From positions 1 to 64,000 of IMG/VR virus record IMGVR_UViG_3300032236_000771: a DNA stretch of 64,000 nt. One strand, 5' to 3'. This document shows positions 7,059-51,334 of the stretch, in pieces. The DNA is from a virus. The position numbers were made by a program, and so were the translations under genes. The notes under the pieces were generated by a model. That model saw only the letters and a program-made list of their open reading frames with translations. It was not told the DNA's origin and ran no database searches. The stretch's first letter is position 1; every line of letters starts with the position of its first letter.

Positions 7059-7529
7059 CTATCCACCAAGGGCGGTAATCCTAGAACTCAGGGATGCAAT
7101 TTGTGACTGCTGGGTCGCAATCGTATGGGCCATAGCAAGCATTGACGCGGTTACGTCTACTTCAATTGACCCATCTGCGTTTCGTGCCGTAATGATGTAA
7201 CTAGTGATTCCAGATAGTGATTCCCCAGCCGCTAGTTGGCGAAGAAGCAGATTGTTGCCCGGTCCTTGGTTCTTACCAAAAACACCTACCCAAATAGGGA
7301 AGGCAACGTCCCCGCCCTCAAACATGACCCATACGCCTTGACCGACTGCTGGAGCCTTTTGACGACCAGTTGCTGAGAACGATGGCCAAGCCCACTCGGT
7401 TGGTTCCTCGTGGAACAACTGCGGAACCTTGATGCGGATACGGCCGTTATTCTGAGGGTCCTTATTGTCTACGACTATGCCTCGATAGACGCCGTAGGCC
7501 CGCTGAGCCCCAGTGCTATCCTTCAGCAT
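7059..7529 (-). CDS. Baseplate spike, gp5/gpV OB-fold
   Basis: YGVYRGIVVDNKDP...GRIRIKVP...P.VGQGVWVMFEGGD..FPIW.G. Confidence 0.9.
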   Translation of the reverse strand: MLKDSTGAQRAYGVYRGIVVDNKDPQNNGRIRIKVPQLFHEEPTEWAWPSFSATGRQKAPAVGQGVWVMFEGGDVAFPIWVGVFGKNQGPGNNLLLRQLAAGESLSGITSYIITARNADGSIEVDVTASMLAMAHTIATQQSQIASLSSRITALGG

Positions 7530-9394
7530 TATGCGTTCCTAGTGATGGCGATTCGGTAAGTCTGAGTGGTGAATCCGTCTTGAGCTAGAACTACTACGTT
7601 GGCAGTCGTTACTCCAACTGGCGTAGTAACCACGGCACCGAGGACTGAGTCGTAAGCAGTTCCGTTGACAGTAATGCTTGCAGTTGACGATACGGCGGTA
7701 AGGGTTACCGAAGTGGTGCTGTCAGCAATGAGCAGGTTGTAGTTCAAGTGGTCTGAGGCAAAACTTGGGCTTAGGGTTCCGTGGTTAGAACTCAAAGCAG
7801 ACAGCGTTGAATCCGAAGATGCAGGGTTGATGTCTAGGTTAGGCTCATCGAATACAAAGATTTCACTAGCGGTTCCTTGCAAAACATTTCGTCCAGTAGC
7901 ACCTGGTCGAGCCAACAAAAGAACCTTGGCATTGTACACGCCGTCAGCCTGACGAATCTGGGCCTCAACTTCTTCTGGAGTAATCAAGTCTCCAAAAATC
8001 ATGTTGTTGTAAGAGAAACGATTTATCAAAGTAGCCAAGATGTTGGCCTTGACCGCATCGTTGGTGTACTGTGGTCGCTTAGTAAACTGAACGCCTAGGT
8101 GAACTGGTACATAACTAGGTGGCGATACAGTGACCGAAACGCCAATCTGAGTCTTGTTAGACAAGTACGAAGTAACGCCTTGGCTAAGTCCAGACCAAGT
8201 CACGGAGTCCAATGTTCCGCCAGCAGTTGGGTCCCCAGTAAAGCCTGGGTAAAGGTCGGTTACATCCGAGTTCTGCTGTGGAGAAACATAGAGGGTTACC
8301 GAGTTCTTCGACTCAGCAATCGCATTGCTTTTACCCACGTTGGTGACCTGAAGGGCTAGGCTTGCATAGTCCAGCAACGTAACGGCTCGGTTCAAAGTAG
8401 TAAGTGCTCGAGGAGCGTTGTAGCGAATGCTGGTGTTGCTCTCTGGCTCTGAGCCACCTACGCCTACGGTCGTATTGCTAACCTCAATGTTTGGCAGAGT
8501 GTAGCCAACTGGAATTGAGTAAATAGTGGTCAGCACGTTCGTAGTTACGTTTCCTACGGCACCTCCGCCAATGGTGTAGTCCACCTTGATGCTCTTACCA
8601 GTGCTTGGGATAGCTCCTGAGATTCCATCGCCAAAGGTGACGTAGACGTAGTTGTTAGCATCGATGTCAATGGTGTAGACGCTGTCCGTTGGCCCACTGT
8701 CTGAAAGGTGGGTAACTGGCTGCCATTCAGCGTAAGTGGTTCCGCTACCAATCTCAACGAAGACCTTGACCGAACCTTCAACTACCTGATTCTCAGCCAG
8801 CATAAAGGTCTGGCTTGGAGTGCCATCACTAATGCCAACTGCCTCGCCATAGTTAGGGTCATTGTTAGGAAGAGTAGATGCGTTTTGTCCGTGCAAAGCA
8901 ATAACGGCCGAACTTGCTCCAGCAGTTCCGTCTACAGCCGCTGGGGCTACTACCGCAGACTGAGTAGTGAAAACCAGTTCTTCAACTGCATCGTTTACGA
9001 CTACCTGTCCGCTAACCTGAGTTCCAGCAGGCACGGTAACATCGCTATTGCCAGTGTTGTAGAAGACAACCGAGCAACTAGCGGACTTGTAACTAGACGG
9101 GTTGTAGCCATAGACTTTGGCTAGATTGATGATGTTCTGACGCTGAGTTGCGGTGCTCAGATAGTTCTCGTTTGCAATTCGGTCAATGTAGTAGTTAGTT
9201 ACGTCGCCCATGTATGCGAATGCCTCAACTAGGGCTACGCCGAAGTCAGCAGGGTCGTTAGCACTCCAAGTAACGCCTGAGTTAGGGACGTTGACGTTTG
9301 CCTGAATGCGGGCAATCAAGTCGCTACGAAGCGAGTAGAAGTCGCGAGACGTATAGTCTACTGATACTGGAATTTCATTGGCAGGAGTGGTCAC
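7529..9394 (-). CDS. Baseplate J-like wedge protein with C-terminal cadherin-like beta-sandwich
   Basis: DYTSRDF.S.R, D.G.ALVE.FAY.GD, RAVT..DY; C-terminal LSALS...LSPSF. Confidence 0.92.
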   Translation of the reverse strand: MTTPANEIPVSVDYTSRDFYSLRSDLIARIQANVNVPNSGVTWSANDPADFGVALVEAFAYMGDVTNYYIDRIANENYLSTATQRQNIINLAKVYGYNPSSYKSASCSVVFYNTGNSDVTVPAGTQVSGQVVVNDAVEELVFTTQSAVVAPAAVDGTAGASSAVIALHGQNASTLPNNDPNYGEAVGISDGTPSQTFMLAENQVVEGSVKVFVEIGSGTTYAEWQPVTHLSDSGPTDSVYTIDIDANNYVYVTFGDGISGAIPSTGKSIKVDYTIGGGAVGNVTTNVLTTIYSIPVGYTLPNIEVSNTTVGVGGSEPESNTSIRYNAPRALTTLNRAVTLLDYASLALQVTNVGKSNAIAESKNSVTLYVSPQQNSDVTDLYPGFTGDPTAGGTLDSVTWSGLSQGVTSYLSNKTQIGVSVTVSPPSYVPVHLGVQFTKRPQYTNDAVKANILATLINRFSYNNMIFGDLITPEEVEAQIRQADGVYNAKVLLLARPGATGRNVLQGTASEIFVFDEPNLDINPASSDSTLSALSSNHGTLSPSFASDHLNYNLLIADSTTSVTLTAVSSTASITVNGTAYDSVLGAVVTTPVGVTTANVVVLAQDGFTTQTYRIAITRNA

Positions 9395-9810
9395 AGGAGT
9401 TCCTCACTTGATGGGCGGTTGCCTGGCGTAAGTACTACGCCGATGTTGGTGGTCACGGTGTCTTGGTTAGGTAGGCTGTAAACTACCTCTACAGACAAAA
9501 GGTTCTCTCGGTCGTCAAAAGAGGTATTGACCTTCTCAAGAGATAGGGCAGGTAAGAAGTTAGCAAAGGCATCGTGAACCGCACCCTTGAGCTTCTCTTG
9601 TGCACCTTGTTCGTTCTCAAAGTTCTGATAAGCAATCTTGGAGCCAAAGCGTGGTCGCATAACTCGCTCACCCACAACAGTGCCAAGAACCCCACGCACC
9701 CGGTCAGCCCAAATCTTGGACTGAGTATTACTTACGGCTACTCGTCCATACTGAGAAATGGCGAATGGTAGTGAGATAGAAATCTCTGAGATTGGGGCTT
9801 GCTGTGCCAT
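9391..9810 (-). CDS. Baseplate gp25/gpW-like protein
   Basis: VLGT..GERVMRPRFGS motif. Confidence 0.9.
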   Translation of the reverse strand: MAQQAPISEISISLPFAISQYGRVAVSNTQSKIWADRVRGVLGTVVGERVMRPRFGSKIAYQNFENEQGAQEKLKGAVHDAFANFLPALSLEKVNTSFDDRENLLSVEVVYSLPNQDTVTTNIGVVLTPGNRPSSEELL

Positions 9811-9816
9811 AGGTGC

Positions 9817-11106
9817 CTACTTCTTCGGTCCTTTGTGAATCCAAGTCGTTGGGGTTCTGGTATAGCCTTGACCCGTTTCTTTGGTCAATGCTCGCATAGG
9901 GGAAAGCATTGTCCCGCTAGTAGTTCGCAAATGAGGTGAATGCCCTCCGTTTGCTACTGCTGCTTCTAAGTCTACCTGACCCACTACGCTTGCGTTGGTC
10001 TTACGGCTTGGGGCTGGGGCGTTAGTTCCCGTGCCATCTGAAAGGGCTTGAATCTCTACTTGGTACTCACCGATGTAAGTGAGAGTGTGAGTTATCTCTG
10101 AAGGAACCCAAAATCCATCAAGGCGGGAGTCTACCCCCTGAACAAATACTGGGTGGTAAGGCCTCATGGCTGGGTGGCCCTGACCTTTGATACGAGCAGG
10201 GAGATTGAACCTTGCCAACTGGGCAGCTCCGTCCGCAGAGGTTGAAGCACCTACAACGTCATGCACTACCTGGTCCGTGCGTTGTTCGTCAAAGAAGACC
10301 GCATTGTTGCCACTACGCAGTTTTTTACCGACCTTAGTAGGAGCCTTAGTTGCAGTGACTGGCTTGCTAGTAACTGGGTCTACACCAGATACGGTCTTAG
10401 TATTGCGGAGCTCTAACCCGTCGATGTATTCGCCCTTCATGGCCTTGATGTAATCCAACGTACGGTCGCTATCCAACGTATCAGTTGGGACATCTCGACC
10501 AAAGGTTGCCATGACCGGGGCCGTCCCAGAGCCCTCATCAATAATTTTGTCCAAAGGTCGGAAGTAGAGAGTAGTGTTCTCTACGTACATGGCATAGCCA
10601 ATACGGGTAGCCTGCTCGTGCAACCACTCCCAATAGGACTGGTTAGCAATCGTAAGTTGAGGAAAAATTCGAGAATGTGGCTCACCGACAAACTTCAGGT
10701 TCTTTTCACGAGCAATCTGTTGAGCCACTTGCGTAATCGTCTTGTTACGGAATGTGCGAATCTTTCGTTCCTTCAAAACAAAGGAAGCCCCAATGCATAC
10801 AACTTCCATTACCTTCTTAGGGGCAACTGAGAGCTCAGAGGTGACGTGGGAGACATAGCCAGTAAAGGTTCCTTTATCAGAACCTTTGTTCCAAGTAAAA
10901 GTAACTGGGATACCAGTAGTTAGAGTGTCCAATAAGCGTTCATTCTGTGTGCTGTACTGCAAGACCGCAATGTCGTGAGACTTCATCTTCTGCGTAATAG
11001 TAACCTTGGCAGGAGGCAACAACGCCGTGTTCAAAGACGGCAACGTTGGAAACGTTACCGAATAGCCAGAACTTCGGCGGTTTGAACCGACTGAATTAGA
11101 GGGCAT
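9817..11106 (-). CDS. Baseplate hub (gpD/VgrG-like)
   Basis: FTGYV, RTF.NKT..QVAQQIA, Q...SYWEWL...A.RIGY, G.P...P...V.V.G...L.G.W....TH. Confidence 0.85.
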   Translation of the reverse strand: MPSNSVGSNRRSSGYSVTFPTLPSLNTALLPPAKVTITQKMKSHDIAVLQYSTQNERLLDTLTTGIPVTFTWNKGSDKGTFTGYVSHVTSELSVAPKKVMEVVCIGASFVLKERKIRTFRNKTITQVAQQIAREKNLKFVGEPHSRIFPQLTIANQSYWEWLHEQATRIGYAMYVENTTLYFRPLDKIIDEGSGTAPVMATFGRDVPTDTLDSDRTLDYIKAMKGEYIDGLELRNTKTVSGVDPVTSKPVTATKAPTKVGKKLRSGNNAVFFDEQRTDQVVHDVVGASTSADGAAQLARFNLPARIKGQGHPAMRPYHPVFVQGVDSRLDGFWVPSEITHTLTYIGEYQVEIQALSDGTGTNAPAPSRKTNASVVGQVDLEAAVANGGHSPHLRTTSGTMLSPMRALTKETGQGYTRTPTTWIHKGPKK

Positions 11107-38379: not shown

Positions 38380-38510
38380 AGTATTTTCTCTTTTCATTCT
38401 CGAGGGTCGTTATCCGAATTAATGCCACATGACCTTGTCACTTGTACAAAATAAGTTCACCTTATTTGTCCAAACTTGTGTTGCTAAAAGCAAGATAGTT
38501 AGTAAATTAA

Positions 38511-40061
38511 CTAGTCTTTGTCAACGGTACGTCGTGATGGAAGTTTGGTCCCATAAGCCTCAGTTACGAGTTCATTACGGATTGCCATTTCGTCCTGGTC
38601 CTCTGCACCCTGACCGTTGGCCTCTTCGTTCTTGGCGTCTGGCCCAATTACGCCATCGCCTAGAACAGAGCCATCGCCCATCATCATTGGGTCCATTGGA
38701 GTAGCGGTGCCATCAGGGCCTGCCATCATGCCAGTGAGGTCCATAATGGACTTCTGGATTTGAACCTTGACTAGGTTGAGAGCACCATCAGACTTAGCGT
38801 CTTCAATAAGTTCTGAACGAATCTCAAGCAACTTCTCTGCTGGGAACTCTTCGCCAAGGGCACGGAGAGCACCTTCCTTGGACTCGAGGCCCATAGACAT
38901 CTTCTGCTGGAGCTCGTTGAGCAGAATCAACTTGTCTAGTGGCAGTGGCTCTGGGAAATGAGCGTAAGTAACGTAAGTCAGCGGGTCATTAGGGTCCAAC
39001 TGAGCAAGTTGGCCTTCGTTGATTGGGCCGTCTTCGTCTGGATTGTAGGAGAGAGTCTCAGGCTCTTTGACGGCCAAGTTCAGGATAACCAGTTCGTTGA
39101 TACGCTCTAGTCCACTTCCATACTGAGAAATTTTCTGTGACCAACGGTTCATCAATGGCTGGTACTGAATCGAAAGTGCTACACCTGAGGTGTTAGAGAT
39201 GGGCTGAACCTGACCAAGAGCGGTCTCAGGAACACCCATCATCTCATGCATTGAACGCTTAAGGGTTTCAAGGTAAGTCATAGCACCGTTGAGTCCAGCA
39301 GAACCGCCCTCAAGGTTGAATACCTGAGCGTCCTTAGGAAGACCTCCCCAAACCTTCTTAGCACCCTTTTCAAGGTTAGAAGACTTGGCACCAACGATTA
39401 CTGTCACAGGGGCAGCGTGGTAGTTGATGATGTCCGCAACGTCAGTAGCGATTTCGTTGTAAGAACGGTTAATGGTGATGATGTCTTGGGCATCCGACAG
39501 TCCCCAAGGCGAACCAGACACTGGGATATTAGGGATGTGGACAACTGGGATAACGCCCAGTGGATTTGGTCGAGAATCAATCAACTCGTCGTTTACGTAT
39601 TCTTCGATAATGTCATCGGTAAGAATTTCGGTGTAGGTAAAGACCTGACGAGTTCCCTCTAGCGAGGTTCCCCAAAAGCGGTACTTCTGCTTGAAACGAA
39701 GCAGGCGAGTACGGTCGTGTGGGTGGAACTCGGGGAAGCAAAAGGCTGAGTTCAACGGAAGGATGCGGACACGTCCCGGGTGGAAACGGCCAATACTGTC
39801 CTCCCACGCCTCTTCATAAGCAACCTTTACGAAGCAGTCGCCAGTGATGCCGCCGAGCTGTGCCATCTCAAGTAGAACGTGCTGCTTGTCGTTATCGATT
39901 TCCCAGACTCGCTCAAGACGTGCAGGGACGATAGCCTCGGTTGCCTTAGGAGAACGGAAGTGGACACCCTTGCCAAAAGTAAAGCGGGCAATGTAGTCAA
40001 GGAAGGCACGGTAGTAGTTGACCGAAATCTGCATCTCGCCTGACTCACGCTTGTAGCCCCA
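38511..40061 (-). CDS. Portal protein, main 3' segment
   Basis: ITGD.FVKV, NPLG.IPVVH.PN, WG.SD, SGVAL.IQYQPL; open frame extends upstream of the track ATG (40034) as HWGYKRESGE. Confidence 0.9.
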   Translation of the reverse strand, partial: WGYKRESGEMQISVNYYRAFLDYIARFTFGKGVHFRSPKATEAIVPARLERVWEIDNDKQHVLLEMAQLGGITGDCFVKVAYEEAWEDSIGRFHPGRVRILPLNSAFCFPEFHPHDRTRLLRFKQKYRFWGTSLEGTRQVFTYTEILTDDIIEEYVNDELIDSRPNPLGVIPVVHIPNIPVSGSPWGLSDAQDIITINRSYNEIATDVADIINYHAAPVTVIVGAKSSNLEKGAKKVWGGLPKDAQVFNLEGGSAGLNGAMTYLETLKRSMHEMMGVPETALGQVQPISNTSGVALSIQYQPLMNRWSQKISQYGSGLERINELVILNLAVKEPETLSYNPDEDGPINEGQLAQLDPNDPLTYVTYAHFPEPLPLDKLILLNELQQKMSMGLESKEGALRALGEEFPAEKLLEIRSELIEDAKSDGALNLVKVQIQKSIMDLTGMMAGPDGTATPMDPMMMGDGSVLGDGVIGPDAKNEEANGQGAEDQDEMAIRNELVTEAYGTKLPSRRTVDKD

Positions 40062-40065
40062 ATGC

Positions 40066-40236
40066 TCAATGGTGCCCTAAGTACATAGCCCAGTTCAAAC
40101 TATAACGGTTTAAACGTGGTCCGTGTACTTCGAACTCCTCATCGGCTAGTTCTACTAGACCCAGTGGAGAAATAGAGATAGTTAAATCGCTACTCGCTGC
40201 ACGGTACGATGGTGGGGAGAAATCGAGGAAGGACAT
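40066..40236 (-). CDS. Portal 5' segment (56 aa) ending at in-frame TGA, out of frame with the 3' segment
   Basis: Manual: MSFLDFSPPSYRAASSDLTISISPLGLVELADEEFEVHGPRLNRYSLNWAMYLGHH*; GGAGGTG RBS. Confidence 0.8.
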   Translation of the reverse strand: MSFLDFSPPSYRAASSDLTISISPLGLVELADEEFEVHGPRLNRYSLNWAMYLGHH

Positions 40237-40292
40237 CAGGCATCACCTCCTAGAGTTTCGGCGGAATTCCGCATTGGCATGTAAACCTTGCC

Positions 40293-40868
40293 CTACTTGT
40301 AATGTTCTTCTAAAATGGTAGCAATAAGTTGCTCCGTACTAATGCCTAACCTAAGAGAATCTTCTTGCAATTTTGACGCCGTGTCTGTGCTAACTAAAGT
40401 TTTTGCACGAATAATGCTCTCTTTAGTCCCAAGCCATCGGCAGTTTTCAGGAGAGTAAGGCCCATCAGGATTGATTCGGTCAAGTTGTTTCTCCGGGCTA
40501 AATCCGTTATTTAATGCCCATTCCTTAAACGTAAAGAAGTCATTTAGCCATTCGTCACAGACCGTAACTCCGAGTGCTCCATAAAAACGATAATTACCAG
40601 CGTTTTTGTTATAGCAACGTTCTTTAATCTTTAGCCAACGCCTATAGATAGGGGTTCTTGACTCGCCATGGTTTTTGACCCTAGTGAAGGTCTGAACTTT
40701 GCCATCCCGCAAACGAGTCACTTCTTGCCTAGGATTGGTGTCCCATTTTTCTACCCTCTTGATGTGGCGACAATTCTTGCACTGGGACTGTAGTCCGTCA
40801 GCAGTGGTTTTGTTTTTATGGAAATCATCAATGGATTTCACTAGACGACACTTTGAGCAAGGTTTCAT
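40293..40868 (-). mobile_element. Free-standing HNH-like homing endonuclease
   Basis: CSKC...CKNC, W..IK.RC.N....Y..YG..G..VC.EW, LDRIN.DG.YSPENCRW; AT-richer; own TATACT leaderless promoter. Confidence 0.8.
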
Positions 40869-40904
40869 CCACTAAGTATAGCGGTGAACAGCAGGTGGGA
40901 ATGT

Positions 40905-41189
40905 CTACTTCTTGTCGCCCTTTTTTCCCTTAGCTGACTTATCAGCCTTGTCCTTGTCCTTGAGTTTCTTGCTCTTGGCGAGGTGCTCTTTACGACGAGC
41001 CTCCATCTGCTGAGCCATAATCTTCTTACGGCGAGTAGTTTCGGAGGTGTCTTCAAACTTTCCGCCCAGTTCCACATAACGCTTGTGCACCCAGTGCGAA
41101 GCACCTGGGGATGGGTAGGTAGCGTACTTGGCCTTAGCCTGTGTGACAACCATGTGCCACAAAGTAGAATTAGTAGGTACCTGTGCCAT
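40905..41189 (-). CDS. Basic hypothetical protein
   Basis: AK.KY.TYPS..AS.WV.K.Y...GG.F; AGGAG RBS. Confidence 0.75.
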   Translation of the reverse strand: MAQVPTNSTLWHMVVTQAKAKYATYPSPGASHWVHKRYVELGGKFEDTSETTRRKKIMAQQMEARRKEHLAKSKKLKDKDKADKSAKGKKGDKK

Positions 41190-41243
41190 AGAACTCCTCT
41201 ATGTCTAAGCACCCCGCCCTAAGGCGGGGCACTCCGACACTAA

Positions 41244-41639
41244 TTAGTCGTTGACTACGGTAGGGTTCAGACGCTGAGTGCGTCCACCCGATACAACGGT
41301 AGTCTCGAACTTCTGCTCTGCGTAGTCGCTGAACGAGCCGTGAGCAAACTCCGACAGGAAGGTCGGGGCTTCAATCCAAGCAGCCGAGCCAACGTGTGCT
41401 CGTTCTGACAGGGTCTCAGCAGCAGGCTTCTGCCATACTGGTGCATTGCGGTTTGGGCGACCAGGGGCAGCAGCGAAACCGCTCATTACGCCCTTCTGGA
41501 AGTCGGTTGGAACGTCAGTGTCAGTAGCAACGCCTTCTTCAAAACGAAGTGGGCCACGACGCTCAAGGTTGCCAGCAAGCTTACGCTCGTAGACCTGAGG
41601 TGAACGCTCTGGGAAGTTAGGGGTTGGACTGATGCCCAT
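41244..41639 (-). CDS. Conserved virion-module protein
   Basis: 131 aa, AAGGAG RBS, between terminase and portal. Confidence 0.75.
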   Translation of the reverse strand: MGISPTPNFPERSPQVYERKLAGNLERRGPLRFEEGVATDTDVPTDFQKGVMSGFAAAPGRPNRNAPVWQKPAAETLSERAHVGSAAWIEAPTFLSEFAHGSFSDYAEQKFETTVVSGGRTQRLNPTVVND

Positions 41640-41732
41640 GATAAACTCCTTAGTGATGGATAGGAAACTGCAGTATTTCCAATCTCTAGTTTGGAGTGTT
41701 TCGGGCCTTTTTGTCGGGCTAACTCAAACTTT

Positions 41733-43325
41733 TTACGCAAAGAATGGCGACATGCTGACCTCTACCTCAGGCATTGTAAGTTCCTTGGTTAGAGAGCAGG
41801 CAATGGCTAGGGAGTCAACAAAGTCATCGTGTGCATGGGCTTCGTTAGGGGCTGCTACTGTGAATATGTTTCCCTTGTACTGGATTTCGGCATCAGTCAT
41901 TTGCTGGTAGAAACGCTTCCAAACGCGAAGACGGCGGGTCTTAGCGTGGGCTGGGTAACTGATTGCCCGTCGCTGAATCAGAGCCTGTAGGTGCTTGAAT
42001 CGGCCAGACTGCTCTTGCTGGCTTGACGTTAGTCCAATAACCTCGGCCCTTGGCAATAGCAGACGAAGACGCTGGGCTACTACGTCACCAACACCGTTGG
42101 CGTCAATGCCCACGGCCAGTACGTCGTAGTTAGATAGGAAGTTGACGATTTGGAAGTACTGTTCTTCCCAGTCATCTCCCTGCAGTTCTAGCCAGTTCAG
42201 TACCCGGTGGTCGTAATAGCCAAACTCATCTGGCCTATCCCAGTCCACGAAGACCACGGTCACAATAGTGGAGTCCATCTTACGGGCGGGGTCAATTCCT
42301 ACGACTACTGGAGTCTGGTGCCAGACCTTGACTAGCTCTTGAGAGGTGTCTCCTAGTTCATCCATGACAGAGGATGACACAAACATTCCTCGCTCAAGGA
42401 GCCACTTGCACATGTAAGACATCTGGAACTCATCAGAGTCCTCGCCAATGCGGAGCATCTCCTGCTTGATGAACTTCTCGTAGTTAGGGTTGACCTTGGC
42501 TACTTCTCGCCAATCCCATTGGAAGTGGTTCTGTCTAGCCCCACGCTCAGTCTGCTTACGTTTGTTCAACTGGATGGACTGATAAAAGTTATTCTTCGAG
42601 GTCGTTGGGGTTCCAGTCTTTACCATGGTTCCCGCATAGTATGCCATCATCGGAGAGATTGACTTGTTGACGATAAAGTCGTCCGCTTCCTGACACTCAT
42701 CGATAATGACGAGGTGGAATGACTTTGACTCAATCTTTGCACGAGGGTTGGCCGTCATCATCATTACGGTAGAGCCGAGTCGCTTTAGGCGAATCTGTCG
42801 GACTACTCCACCCACACGCTCGGTGCTGTCGTCAATTTCTGGGTCGTCTAGAATCTCCACAGCTCGCTCTGAAGTCAGGCGGCTAACGGTACGGCCAAAC
42901 AGTGTTTCAGCCTGACCTTCAGTAGGTGCAAATAGACCAACCCACAGCCCATCTTTGAACTTACCTAGAAGGTCTGGATACAACTTGGCAAGGCTAGGTA
43001 GTAGAACCATAAGGGTGGCTACTGTGTCAGCAACGGTCTCAGACTTTCCTGACTGACGAGAGGCTAGGGCAGTGATTGCCTTACCGTCACCAATAATGAC
43101 TGACTCCATAATGCGTCTAGCCAAAGGCTTCTGGTATGGGTGCAAGTCGTGGCCAACAAGGTGCTTTAGGAATTGCATCATCTTGTCGATAAGGCGGTCA
43201 ACGAACTGCTGAGACAACTCATCGAGTTGCTCCTCATCGTCTACAACGGAATCGGAACCATCCTCCTGATAATACTCAGGATTGATTTCCTCAAACTGTT
43301 CTAGGTCTGGCTGGGTATCGTTCAT
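41733..43325 (-). CDS. terL: Terminase large subunit
   Basis: HPYQ, SRQSGKS, IIDECQ, TGTP, GIDPAR..D, D.NGVG, HDDFVDSLA. Confidence 0.96.
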   Translation of the reverse strand: MNDTQPDLEQFEEINPEYYQEDGSDSVVDDEEQLDELSQQFVDRLIDKMMQFLKHLVGHDLHPYQKPLARRIMESVIIGDGKAITALASRQSGKSETVADTVATLMVLLPSLAKLYPDLLGKFKDGLWVGLFAPTEGQAETLFGRTVSRLTSERAVEILDDPEIDDSTERVGGVVRQIRLKRLGSTVMMMTANPRAKIESKSFHLVIIDECQEADDFIVNKSISPMMAYYAGTMVKTGTPTTSKNNFYQSIQLNKRKQTERGARQNHFQWDWREVAKVNPNYEKFIKQEMLRIGEDSDEFQMSYMCKWLLERGMFVSSSVMDELGDTSQELVKVWHQTPVVVGIDPARKMDSTIVTVVFVDWDRPDEFGYYDHRVLNWLELQGDDWEEQYFQIVNFLSNYDVLAVGIDANGVGDVVAQRLRLLLPRAEVIGLTSSQQEQSGRFKHLQALIQRRAISYPAHAKTRRLRVWKRFYQQMTDAEIQYKGNIFTVAAPNEAHAHDDFVDSLAIACSLTKELTMPEVEVSMSPFFA

Positions 43326-50764: not shown

Positions 50765-51214
50765 TTATTCTGACCGAAATTCGATTTTATCAATCTCAGA
50801 ATGCCCTGAACGCCTAAACGTCCTCTCTCGGTGGCAGTTAGAACAGACTAGGTCGCACTTGTAGATTTCCTCGATAATCTTGGCCTCTGAATTGCCATTG
50901 GAAATCATGTAGGAGATAGGGGCCACTTTTTCGCCATTTACGTGGTCAAAGTCCATGACATACCAAGGGAACTTGTTACCACAGTCAAAACAAGGGGTTT
51001 CGGACTTGAAGTTGCGGACCCAAGACTTGATGCTGTCCATACGGGTTTTGCGGTTGATTTTGACGTGCAACTTGTGCAGGTCTCGGTCTCGGTGGTACCG
51101 CTCCCTAGAGGCGATGTTGGTGCATTCCTTACACCACGCCTGAAGACGAGTAGCCCCCTTCTTATTGAACTGGCCCAGAGGCTTGTCCGTGTCGCATTTA
51201 TTGCAGTGCTTCAT
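50765..51214 (-). mobile_element. Free-standing HNH endonuclease
   Basis: CNKC..CKEC, PC.DCG, MDFDH, E..KC.LVC.NCHR.RT; start reassigned to MKHC downstream of the tRNA. Confidence 0.8.
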
Positions 51215-51263
51215 AGCCCCCAAGATAGCACAAAACCCCCTGTGTTTCCACAAGGGGTCTGAG

Positions 51264-51334
51264 CTGGTCCACCTGGAATCGAACCAAGAATCACGAGTTA
51301 ACAGCTCGTCGTTATGCCTTTTAACTATGGACCA
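51264..51334 (-). tRNA. trnN: tRNA-Asn (GTT), CCA not encoded
   Basis: Cloverleaf: TGGTCCA/TGGACCA, GTTA/TAAC, ACGAG-CTGTTAA-CTCGT, CTTGG-TTCGATT-CCAGG, discriminator G. Confidence 0.9.

Follow-up and report, generated by a model that had tools for sequence, protein, structure and literature searches.

A seven-nucleotide, stop-led insert in the portal gene of an uncultured pond phage: a candidate short ribosomal hop beside an HNH-like cassette

We analysed the portal locus in a stretch of 64,000 nucleotides (nt) of phage DNA (positions 1 to 64,000 of IMG/VR record IMGVR_UViG_3300032236_000771; hereafter the window), in which seven extra bases divide a portal gene into two open reading frames (ORFs). 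The window is part of an 85,557-nt IMG/VR viral contig with an estimated completeness of 89%. The phage, from a pond, is uncultured and known from its metagenomic record, and the portal locus lies on the minus strand. The large terminase gene (41733-43325, minus strand; matching Pfam Terminase_6N and 6C) is followed by a gene for 131 amino acids (aa), a 94-aa gene, a 191-aa ORF, portal ORF1 and portal ORF2, and scaffold-like and capsid-like genes lie downstream of the portal. The parts of the interrupted gene are listed here.

40236..40066, minus strand: portal ORF1, 56 codons (MSFLDF...NWAMYLGHH) plus a TGA stop; residues 1-56 are those of the intact relative P0002
40069..40071, minus strand: CAT (His56), the proposed take-off codon, which ends the sense part of ORF1 and has TGA next
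40062..40068, minus strand: the 7 extra bases TGA G CAT, that is, the stop, one base and the proposed landing codon CAT (40064-40062)
38511..40061, minus strand: portal ORF2, 516 codons from TGG (Trp), where decoding is proposed to resume, up to the TAG stop; Pfam SPP1_portal

On the minus strand the junction (40083-40044) reads TAC TTA GGG CAC CAT TGA G CAT TGG GGC TAC AAG CGT GAG. An earlier reading made from the letters alone (the sequence-only reading) had reported this junction, the two CAT codons at 40071-40069 and 40064-40062 and the TGA directly after the first CAT, and all were confirmed to the base. As listed, ORF2 runs from ATG 40034 to 38511 (507 aa) in the +1 frame relative to ORF1, and it matches Pfam SPP1_portal (PF05133) with an expect value (E) of 8e-19. 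Its frame opens at GGC 40076, which leaves only TTA GGG CAC CAT TGA common to the two frames. The insert is 168 nt from the start of the portal gene, where conservation within the family is highest (NWAMYLGHH-WGY). With CATTG occurring twice, the insert resembles a duplication of 5 nt with AG added, and its placement is ambiguous by up to 5 bases. With the 7 nt omitted, the two parts add up to 56 + 516 = 572 codons.

Relatives of this portal do not carry the seven bases. A portal relative was encoded in 597 of 600 IMG/VR stretches matched by tblastn, and the best 80 of the 597 were fetched (the 80 related loci). The portal was uninterrupted at the junction in all 80, with the usual DNA CAC CAT TGG GG in place of CAC CAT [TGAGCAT] TGG here, and the relatives read ...GHHWGY(R/K)RE across it. 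When the read-through product, with X at the break, was used as a query, 3340 proteins among 8000 scored candidates matched at E <= 1e-5. Among the best 120 portal protein matches, 119 were 569-578 aa long and the remaining one was the 507-aa ORF2 itself. All 43 full-length N-termini that were inspected read ...NWAMYLGHH(W/Y)(G/S)Y(R/K)RE... without a break. The nearest intact relative is P0002, with 572 aa and 96% identity; 20 of its 572 residues differ, none of them in the first 100. Its length is that of ORF1 plus ORF2 read from TGG, which agrees with the earlier statement that deletion of 7 nt gives a continuous 572-aa portal and indicates that the two ORFs belong to one protein split by a gap. 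Compared with two complete relatives (G001 and G002), the portal holds the only clear frameshift in the 85.5-kb contig. Four weak candidate frameshift pairs elsewhere (identity 36-84%) were rejected, as reading all six frames gave no clear split gene.

The insert was found in several assemblies. A Logan contig from run X1 (4197 nt, word depth 83.9) equals window positions 38500-41700 with no other letters and no gaps; all sampled words were present in X1, which may be the window's own source run, so that this contig counts as a second assembler and not as a second sample. Another study's pond metagenome, run X2, contained a 561-nt contig over 40015-40571 that carried six substitutions and no gaps and joined the insert to the 191-aa ORF. 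Run X3, from the same study as X2, gave a 647-nt contig over 40042-40688 with seven substitutions, all outside 40042-40110, and no gaps. A 480-nt contig from a third study (X4) aligned without gaps to 39612-40091 with 18 substitutions, probably the 18 of X3 in 39601-39972; X4 probably also holds the insert and would count as a third study. An assembly error over the insert, raised earlier as a possible refutation, is excluded by the X1, X2 and X3 sequences, which are contigs and not raw reads. A 49,820-nt ENA contig encodes an ORF2 variant (P0368, differing in 1 of 507 residues) together with a variant of the 191-aa protein (P0122, 99% identity) whose two substitutions are those of the X2-X4 strain. 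The exact 56-aa ORF1 product has been called on 37 contigs from JGI, Logan and ENA. No RNA run was listed as holding the stretch.

Differences between the window and this second carrier strain were assigned to genes for the 26 that were listed; 58 further ones lie outside these 26. All 10 portal differences were synonymous (1 of 1 in ORF1 and 9 of 9 in ORF2), as were 11 of 13 in the 191-aa ORF and 2 of 2 in the 94-aa gene, and one difference was intergenic. Because of the second assembly, the strain from another study and these synonymous-only portal differences, the insert is judged to be real, neither an artefact nor the mark of a dead gene. The comparison of the two strains likewise indicates that the insert is older than their split and that the interrupted portal is under purifying selection. 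In the body of the portal gene (38889-39972) the second strain diverges from the window by about 5% (25/487, 18/372 and 15/260), compared with 1.1-1.4% (6/557, 7/647, 12/876 and 11/803) over the portal 5' end, the inserted upstream cassette described below and the upstream genes (40015-41700). This contrast is compatible with a recent co-conversion around the cassette. One X2 contig (depth 7, with 27 letters on its shorter side) joins 41111 to 41356 and omits 244 nt, in which the 131-aa gene ends and the 94-aa gene begins; this contig may represent a deletion variant or the arrangement of a relative.

The 191-aa ORF lies in a block of DNA that separates the portal gene from its usual upstream neighbour.

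40237..40904, minus strand: cassette of 668 nt, inserted between the 94-aa upstream gene and the portal gene
40293..40868, minus strand: HNH-like ORF (putative homing endonuclease), 191 aa; PHROG match
40243..40251, minus strand: strong Shine-Dalgarno-like element AGGAGGTGA, contributed by the cassette and followed after 6 nt by the portal ATG; function inferred

In all 70 relatives in which it could be measured, the 94-aa gene ends between -4 and +13 nt from the portal start, with a 1-nt overlap in 56 of them. The G+C content of the cassette is 41-45%, compared with 50-58% on either side. The sequence-only reading had placed an HNH gene 57 nt before the portal start; the adjacency holds, and the distance from the end of the ORF to the portal ATG at 40236 is 56 nt. 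The HNH label is backed by PHROG annotation and not by Pfam, where no HNH model scored above the cut-off. Residues 57-182 match phrog_374 and phrog_3377, both annotated 'HNH endonuclease', at E of about 2e-34, and the Cys-rich N-terminus matches PHROG families annotated 'endonuclease VII'. The closer homologs of the protein (P0123-P0128) share 53-76% identity at the protein level, and DNA scans gave only relatives at 55% or less. For one of them, P0124, the longest JGI contig listed has 28,268 nt, as it has for a 56-aa ORF1 variant, P0357, suggesting that the two lie on one contig. In relatives the portal start is coupled to the upstream 94-aa gene instead of having its own Shine-Dalgarno-like element. 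A second ORF in the window, of 222 aa, shares the Cys-rich N-terminal motif of the 191-aa protein (51086-51214, minus strand; E 0.0054, 37% over 45 residues). It adjoins the sole tRNA gene, tRNA-Asn (51263-51334), and may likewise be nuclease-like.

Three further viral contigs with portal genes interrupted at the same codon boundary came out of pattern scans for W-A-x-Y-L-G-H-H with a stop after it. L215, on the contig of locus L096, reads CAT CAT-TGAAT-TGG, a 5-nt insert that changes the frame by +2; in L096 a 158-aa HNH-like homolog (40% identity) overlaps the portal start. L216, on the contig of locus L095, reads CAT CAT-TAGCTC-TGG with a 6-nt insert that leaves the frame unchanged (0), and the 155-aa HNH-like homolog in L095 ends 6 nt before the portal start. 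The Cys-rich N-terminal part is missing from the homologs in L096 and L216. L217 reads CAT CAT-TAGCAC-TGG, again 6 nt and in frame (0), with matched His codons. Upstream of it (L217:1-229), only about the last 30 residues of an HNH-like homolog are in frame (...KAKELGIDPYELIERAVRNYLQEIEGVMS), with stops before them; the cassette of L217 has decayed, and its 6-nt insert was kept. Four phages thus carry stop-led inserts of 5, 6, 6 and 7 nt at one codon boundary, with frame changes of +2, 0, 0 and +1. In cultured genomes, a scan for HH followed by TGA or TAA gave no matches. The single HH plus TAG match of that scan (L222, a Bacilli metagenome-assembled genome) was rejected as a chance match outside any portal gene.

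When loci were selected by similarity to the HNH-like protein and not by the portal, the same association was seen. This fetch gave 119 loci, namely 39 viral ones and the best 80 of 576 metagenomic ones. Four of the 119 hold this portal family (L094, L095, L096 and L133), and in all four the portal is interrupted within YLGHHW, at most 4 codons from the site in the window. In the HNH-fetched loci that were inspected, the HNH-like homolog lies directly upstream of the interrupted portal. By comparison, none of the 80 related, intact loci has an HNH-like homolog. L094 and L133 read TAC CTA TTA CG CTG GGT (CTA-TTACGCTG-GGT), with an 8-nt, TTA-led insert between two Leu codons. In the window's own portal subfamily, four viral contigs read GGT TGA ATA GGT CAT (GGT-TGAATAGGT-CAT), a 9-nt in-frame insert with matched Gly codons; one of these, L218, has no nuclease gene at the position of the cassette. 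In two of the four same-site designs the take-off tRNA would have a cognate landing triplet (CAT in the window and CAC in L217), and so it would in the nearby Gly and Leu designs.

Interrupted portals of this kind are also visible as short proteins in public collections. We found 111 short ORF1-like products (34-96 aa; P0242-P0352), many on contigs of 30-120 kb, and they end at hot spots (...YLG, ...YLGHH, ...WAFY, ...NRYAQN, ...NRY and ...EEFEV). Six distinct 56/57-aa ORF1 variants end in ...YLGHH (P0353 on the 37 contigs mentioned above, P0355-P0357, P0359 and P0364). One short product, P0350, carries the NCBI name Streptomyces sp. NBC_01451 and lies on a 10.27-Mb sequence; it may come from a prophage in a cultured strain and could provide a bench system for another insert site. 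Some of the interrupted loci hold further elements. The portal ORF2 of L096 (4590-7133; IMGVR_UViG_3300032893_000010, 116 kb) has 847 aa with an intein-like insertion (...LNASF-CLTEDTEV...VTGN-CFPEWHPHD), which adds to the 5-nt stop-led insert and the upstream HNH-like homolog. In L218 (IMGVR_UViG_3300025382_000029) an intein-like block lies in the large terminase gene (8421-9896; CLVPTTKVL...ASHNC), and a second frame change in the portal N-terminal region, at about 7360-7520 near the EEFEV codons, is located upstream of the 9-nt insert.

The reading that we favour, and hold to be probably correct, is that the portal is made as one 572-aa chain by a short ribosomal hop over the 7-nt insert, which was brought in with the HNH-like cassette. 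In this scheme a mobile HNH-like cassette would have entered between the 94-aa gene and the portal, and the 7-nt insert would have come with it, most likely making the carrier's own portal gene unrecognisable to the nuclease. With the CAU of His56 in the ribosomal P site and UGA in the A site, peptidyl-tRNA-His would release the mRNA, the mRNA would slide by 7 nt, the tRNA would re-pair with the second CAU, and decoding would resume at UGG. The triplet before TGG is the same as the take-off codon CAT, so peptidyl-tRNA-His could unpair at UGA and re-pair after 7 nt. The hop would leave the junction peptide ...LGHHWGYK (YSLNWAMYLGHHWGYK), compared with ...LGHHEHWGYK after a +1 shift. Both parts of this proposal had been put forward in the sequence-only reading and gained from the comparison: that ribosomes hop over the insert is favoured by the inserts at the same boundary in four phages and by the purifying selection, and that the insert belongs with the HNH gene is favoured by the interruption of all four HNH-selected loci with this portal and by the absence of an HNH-like gene from the 80 intact ones. 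In this distribution the insert travels with the cassette. By analogy with MobA and gene 60, the same co-occurrence supports the idea of self-protection, in which the nuclease would spare its own carrier because of the insert. What is inferred is the hop as such, how efficient it is and which target the nuclease has. The strong ribosome-binding site of the cassette could offset a low efficiency of hopping.

Other explanations account for parts of these data. A +1 frameshift of the prfB type at CAU UGA G, in which GAG CAU UGG would be read and a 574-aa portal made with an extra Glu-His between HH and WGY, is unlikely, even though ORF2 lies in the +1 frame, the frames overlap over TTA GGG CAC CAT TGA with the stop in the A site, and a weak Shine-Dalgarno-like AGGG ends 3 nt before CAU, which is the spacing of prfB. 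By general pairing rules, tRNA-His on AUU would form at most one of three pairs, making re-pairing impossible, and the extra residues would land where 80 of 80 relatives show no variation. The TTAGGG codon choice is present in the intact relatives L031 and L065 too. A +1 shift also cannot rescue the same-site alleles with 5- and 6-nt inserts. As the same-site designs change the frame by +1, +2, 0 and 0, no single frameshift or readthrough event is sufficient; +1 shifting, -1 shifting or readthrough would each rescue only some of the designs and add residues in the invariant stretch, and resuming at TGG fits all four. Nor is a suppressor or four-base-reading tRNA at hand, because the genome encodes tRNA-Asn only. 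We consider it quite improbable that recoding is absent and that the portal works in two pieces or without its N-terminus, with ORF1 stopping at TGA and translation restarting at ATG 40034. An in-frame ATG does lie 32 nt after the stop, the synonymous-only ORF2 changes among the differences listed would fit equally, and phage proteins split by homing endonucleases, T4 topoisomerase and nrdA being the cases described, can reassemble (10.1101/2022.08.31.505936). However, the Met at 40034 corresponds to a conserved residue, the Met of GEMQ, in intact relatives and lacks a distinct ribosome-binding site, the invariant residues WGYKRESGE would be lost, and there are no added tails as in known split genes. 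In L216 and L217, moreover, the ORF2 frames contain no ATG, GTG or TTG until about 200 nt (L216) or about 50 nt (L217) past the stop.

That the genome is defective, with a recent portal pseudogene spread with the help of co-infecting relatives, or that the insert is a sequencing or assembly artefact, appears very unlikely. The record is a single metagenomic contig, and relatives occur at comparable depth in the same run. Against this stand the depth of 83.9 in the second assembly, the insert in runs of another study, the synonymous nature of all ten listed portal differences, the 37 contigs with the exact ORF1 and the many other lineages that carry inserts at the same place. Removal or neutralisation of the 7 nt in the RNA, by editing, a tiny splice or transcriptional slippage, is hardly to be expected: slippage would need a homopolymer run, which is absent, 7 nt falls far short of the size of any self-splicing element known to us, and we know of no such phage system.

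We also looked for RNA signals around the junction, and one element of uncertain role was predicted.

40079..40130, minus strand: predicted 5' stem-loop with the hairpin 40093-40115 as its core; role uncertain

The hairpin had been described earlier as lying about 25 nt upstream of the gap. It is present, with GTTTAAAC (40115-40108), a 7-nt loop and GTTTGAAC (40100-40093), and ends 21 nt before the first CAT. The predicted stability of the 5' stem-loop is -19.2 kcal/mol, compared with a mean of -11.4 (standard deviation 2.7) for the same 63 nt in the 80 relatives, none of which is as stable. We did not use it as support for a bypass signal, as it is absent from the other same-site alleles. ORF1 is near-invariant across the portal family with or without the insert, so that no insert-specific nascent-peptide signal is readable from it.

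Several observations weigh against the hop. The 5' stem-loop is not common to the three other same-site alleles (-10.5, -14.9 and -12.6 kcal/mol). No take-off stem-loop was predicted in the fold of 40000-40140, where CAU lies in no stable stem, and 21 of 200 shuffles fold at least as well as the 141-nt context (z -1.25). In L215 (AAT) and L216 (CTC) the landing triplet is not cognate, with two of three pairs possible. The matched CAT may be a by-product of the origin of the insert, in which CATTG was duplicated, and hops in synthetic E. coli constructs are about 1% efficient. The choice of the 80 loci by best match biases that sample towards intact genes. The nuclease label is also weak. Against Pfam no family scored above its cut-off (His_Me_b4a2 reached 14.1 bits with a cut-off of 25), NCBIfam gave nothing meaningful beyond one chance-level row at E 0.034, and PDB sequences gave no hits. 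Atlas feature scores for the protein are at most 0.86, below 0.9, with loose pointers to NUMOD, I-HmuI-like and Endonuclease_7 clusters; the protein is best described as HNH-like and a putative homing endonuclease. Finally, no second copy of the exact insert was found in viral contigs and JGI metagenome contigs, where the nearest records may lie outside the scanned sets, and no insert of 1-30 nt between HH and WGGY was found in viral or JGI contigs. These negative scans are therefore not evidence of rarity, and the protein look-up places the exact ORF1 on 37 contigs.

Among known systems, the arrangement resembles T4 gene 60 and its homing endonuclease MobA. As described in the 2022 MobA preprint, the interrupted gene has a free-standing nuclease gene directly upstream (10.1101/2022.08.31.505936). 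The insert, about 50 codons into the gene (codon 46 in T4, codon 56 here), falls within highly conserved sequence, with a stop directly after the take-off codon and with a landing codon that matches the one at take-off, and relatives occur in which the nuclease is lost and the insert kept (here L217). The preprint, citing its reference 19, states that the bypass insert, and not flanking polymorphisms, blocks nicking by MobA, and it calls the gene 60 cassette unique (10.1101/2022.08.31.505936). There are also clear differences. The gap is 50 nt in T4 and 7 nt here, and the interrupted gene encodes a topoisomerase there and a portal here (PMC5009743). A 7-nt gap cannot hold a take-off stem-loop or a gap-internal Shine-Dalgarno element, no nascent-peptide signal was identified here, and the present case is known from sequence alone. 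The 191-aa nuclease-like protein is, as far as compared, unrelated to MobA. The portal element would work in the manner of gene 60 and MobA but does not belong to that family.

In form, the closest cases are the short gaps of the Streptomyces phage phiHau3 and synthetic stop-hops. The terminase gene g6/7/8 of phiHau3 contains two frame-breaking, UUA-led inserts of 10 nt (PMC10732093; PMC5009743). According to the phiHau3 report, full-length product was made in Streptomyces, and a version with UAA for UUA was bypassed in E. coli, with the junction peptide detected by mass spectrometry (PMC10732093). Likenesses are the short gaps, a phage DNA-packaging gene, a slow-to-decode lead codon and flanks that are contiguous in insert-free relatives (PMC10732093), and L094 and L133 carry a UUA-led 8-nt version. 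In contrast to phiHau3, a natural stop leads here, the insert is 7 nt long and sits in a portal gene, it is tied to a nuclease-like cassette, and a regulatory role of the bldA tRNA is not indicated; the main text of the phiHau3 report mentions neither HNH nor homing (PMC10732093). The gaps in this portal family are likewise of about 10 nt or less and led by a stop or rare codon, namely 7 nt with TGA here and 5, 6, 6 and 9 nt with TGA or TAG and 8 nt with TTA in the relatives. In the synthetic stop-hops of E. coli, as reviewed, codons that match lie on both sides of a stop, and 9 nt encode one residue (PMC5009743). The XXX-stop-XXX order with re-pairing of the peptidyl-tRNA is shared, and L217 (CAT TAG CAC) and GGT TGA ATA GGT are in-frame versions of it. 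The synthetic hops were engineered, whereas the hop proposed here would also change the frame (7 nt). The 2016 review states that no natural in-frame stop-hop was known (PMC5009743).

The prfB (RF2) gene shares with the window an in-frame UGA at the shift site, a purine-rich element 3 nt upstream and an ORF2 in the +1 frame. It differs in that the P-site CAU here cannot re-pair in +1, no autoregulatory logic is apparent, and the same-site alleles need 0 or +2. In a limited collection of papers, literature on bypassing together with portal, HNH, coding gap or stop-hop yielded no such portal-gene inserts. The unusually short bypass in a new gene class proposed earlier would, within these papers, be new for a portal gene; for short bypasses in phage packaging genes there is a precedent in the 10-nt gaps of the phiHau3 terminase, the closest published case (PMC10732093).

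Very few natural cases of bypassing are known: T4 gene 60 with its homologs, the phiHau3 terminase and yeast mitochondria. What the window and its relatives would add is a 7-nt stop-led gap in an essential structural gene, several designs at one boundary, a mobile nuclease-like gene nearby and purifying selection in the wild. We regard the chances as evenly balanced that homing-nuclease cassettes in phage portal genes use short stop-led inserts (5-9 nt) as a general means of self-immunity. If so, a tiny untranslatable block would be planted in the nuclease's own target, among the most conserved codons of an essential gene, the hop would need no dedicated RNA structures, and natural stop-hops would be common in wild phages. 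The window would then offer a clean frame-changing case (CAU-UGA-G-CAU) with an apparently intact nuclease-like gene. Gene callers cut genes of this sort into pieces, which the 111 short ORF1-like proteins in public collections illustrate, and essential phage genes may therefore be mis-annotated as broken. If the proposed hop is true, ribosomes would be reliable for short hops without the elaborate signals of gene 60, and selfish nucleases would exploit such hops to protect their carriers.

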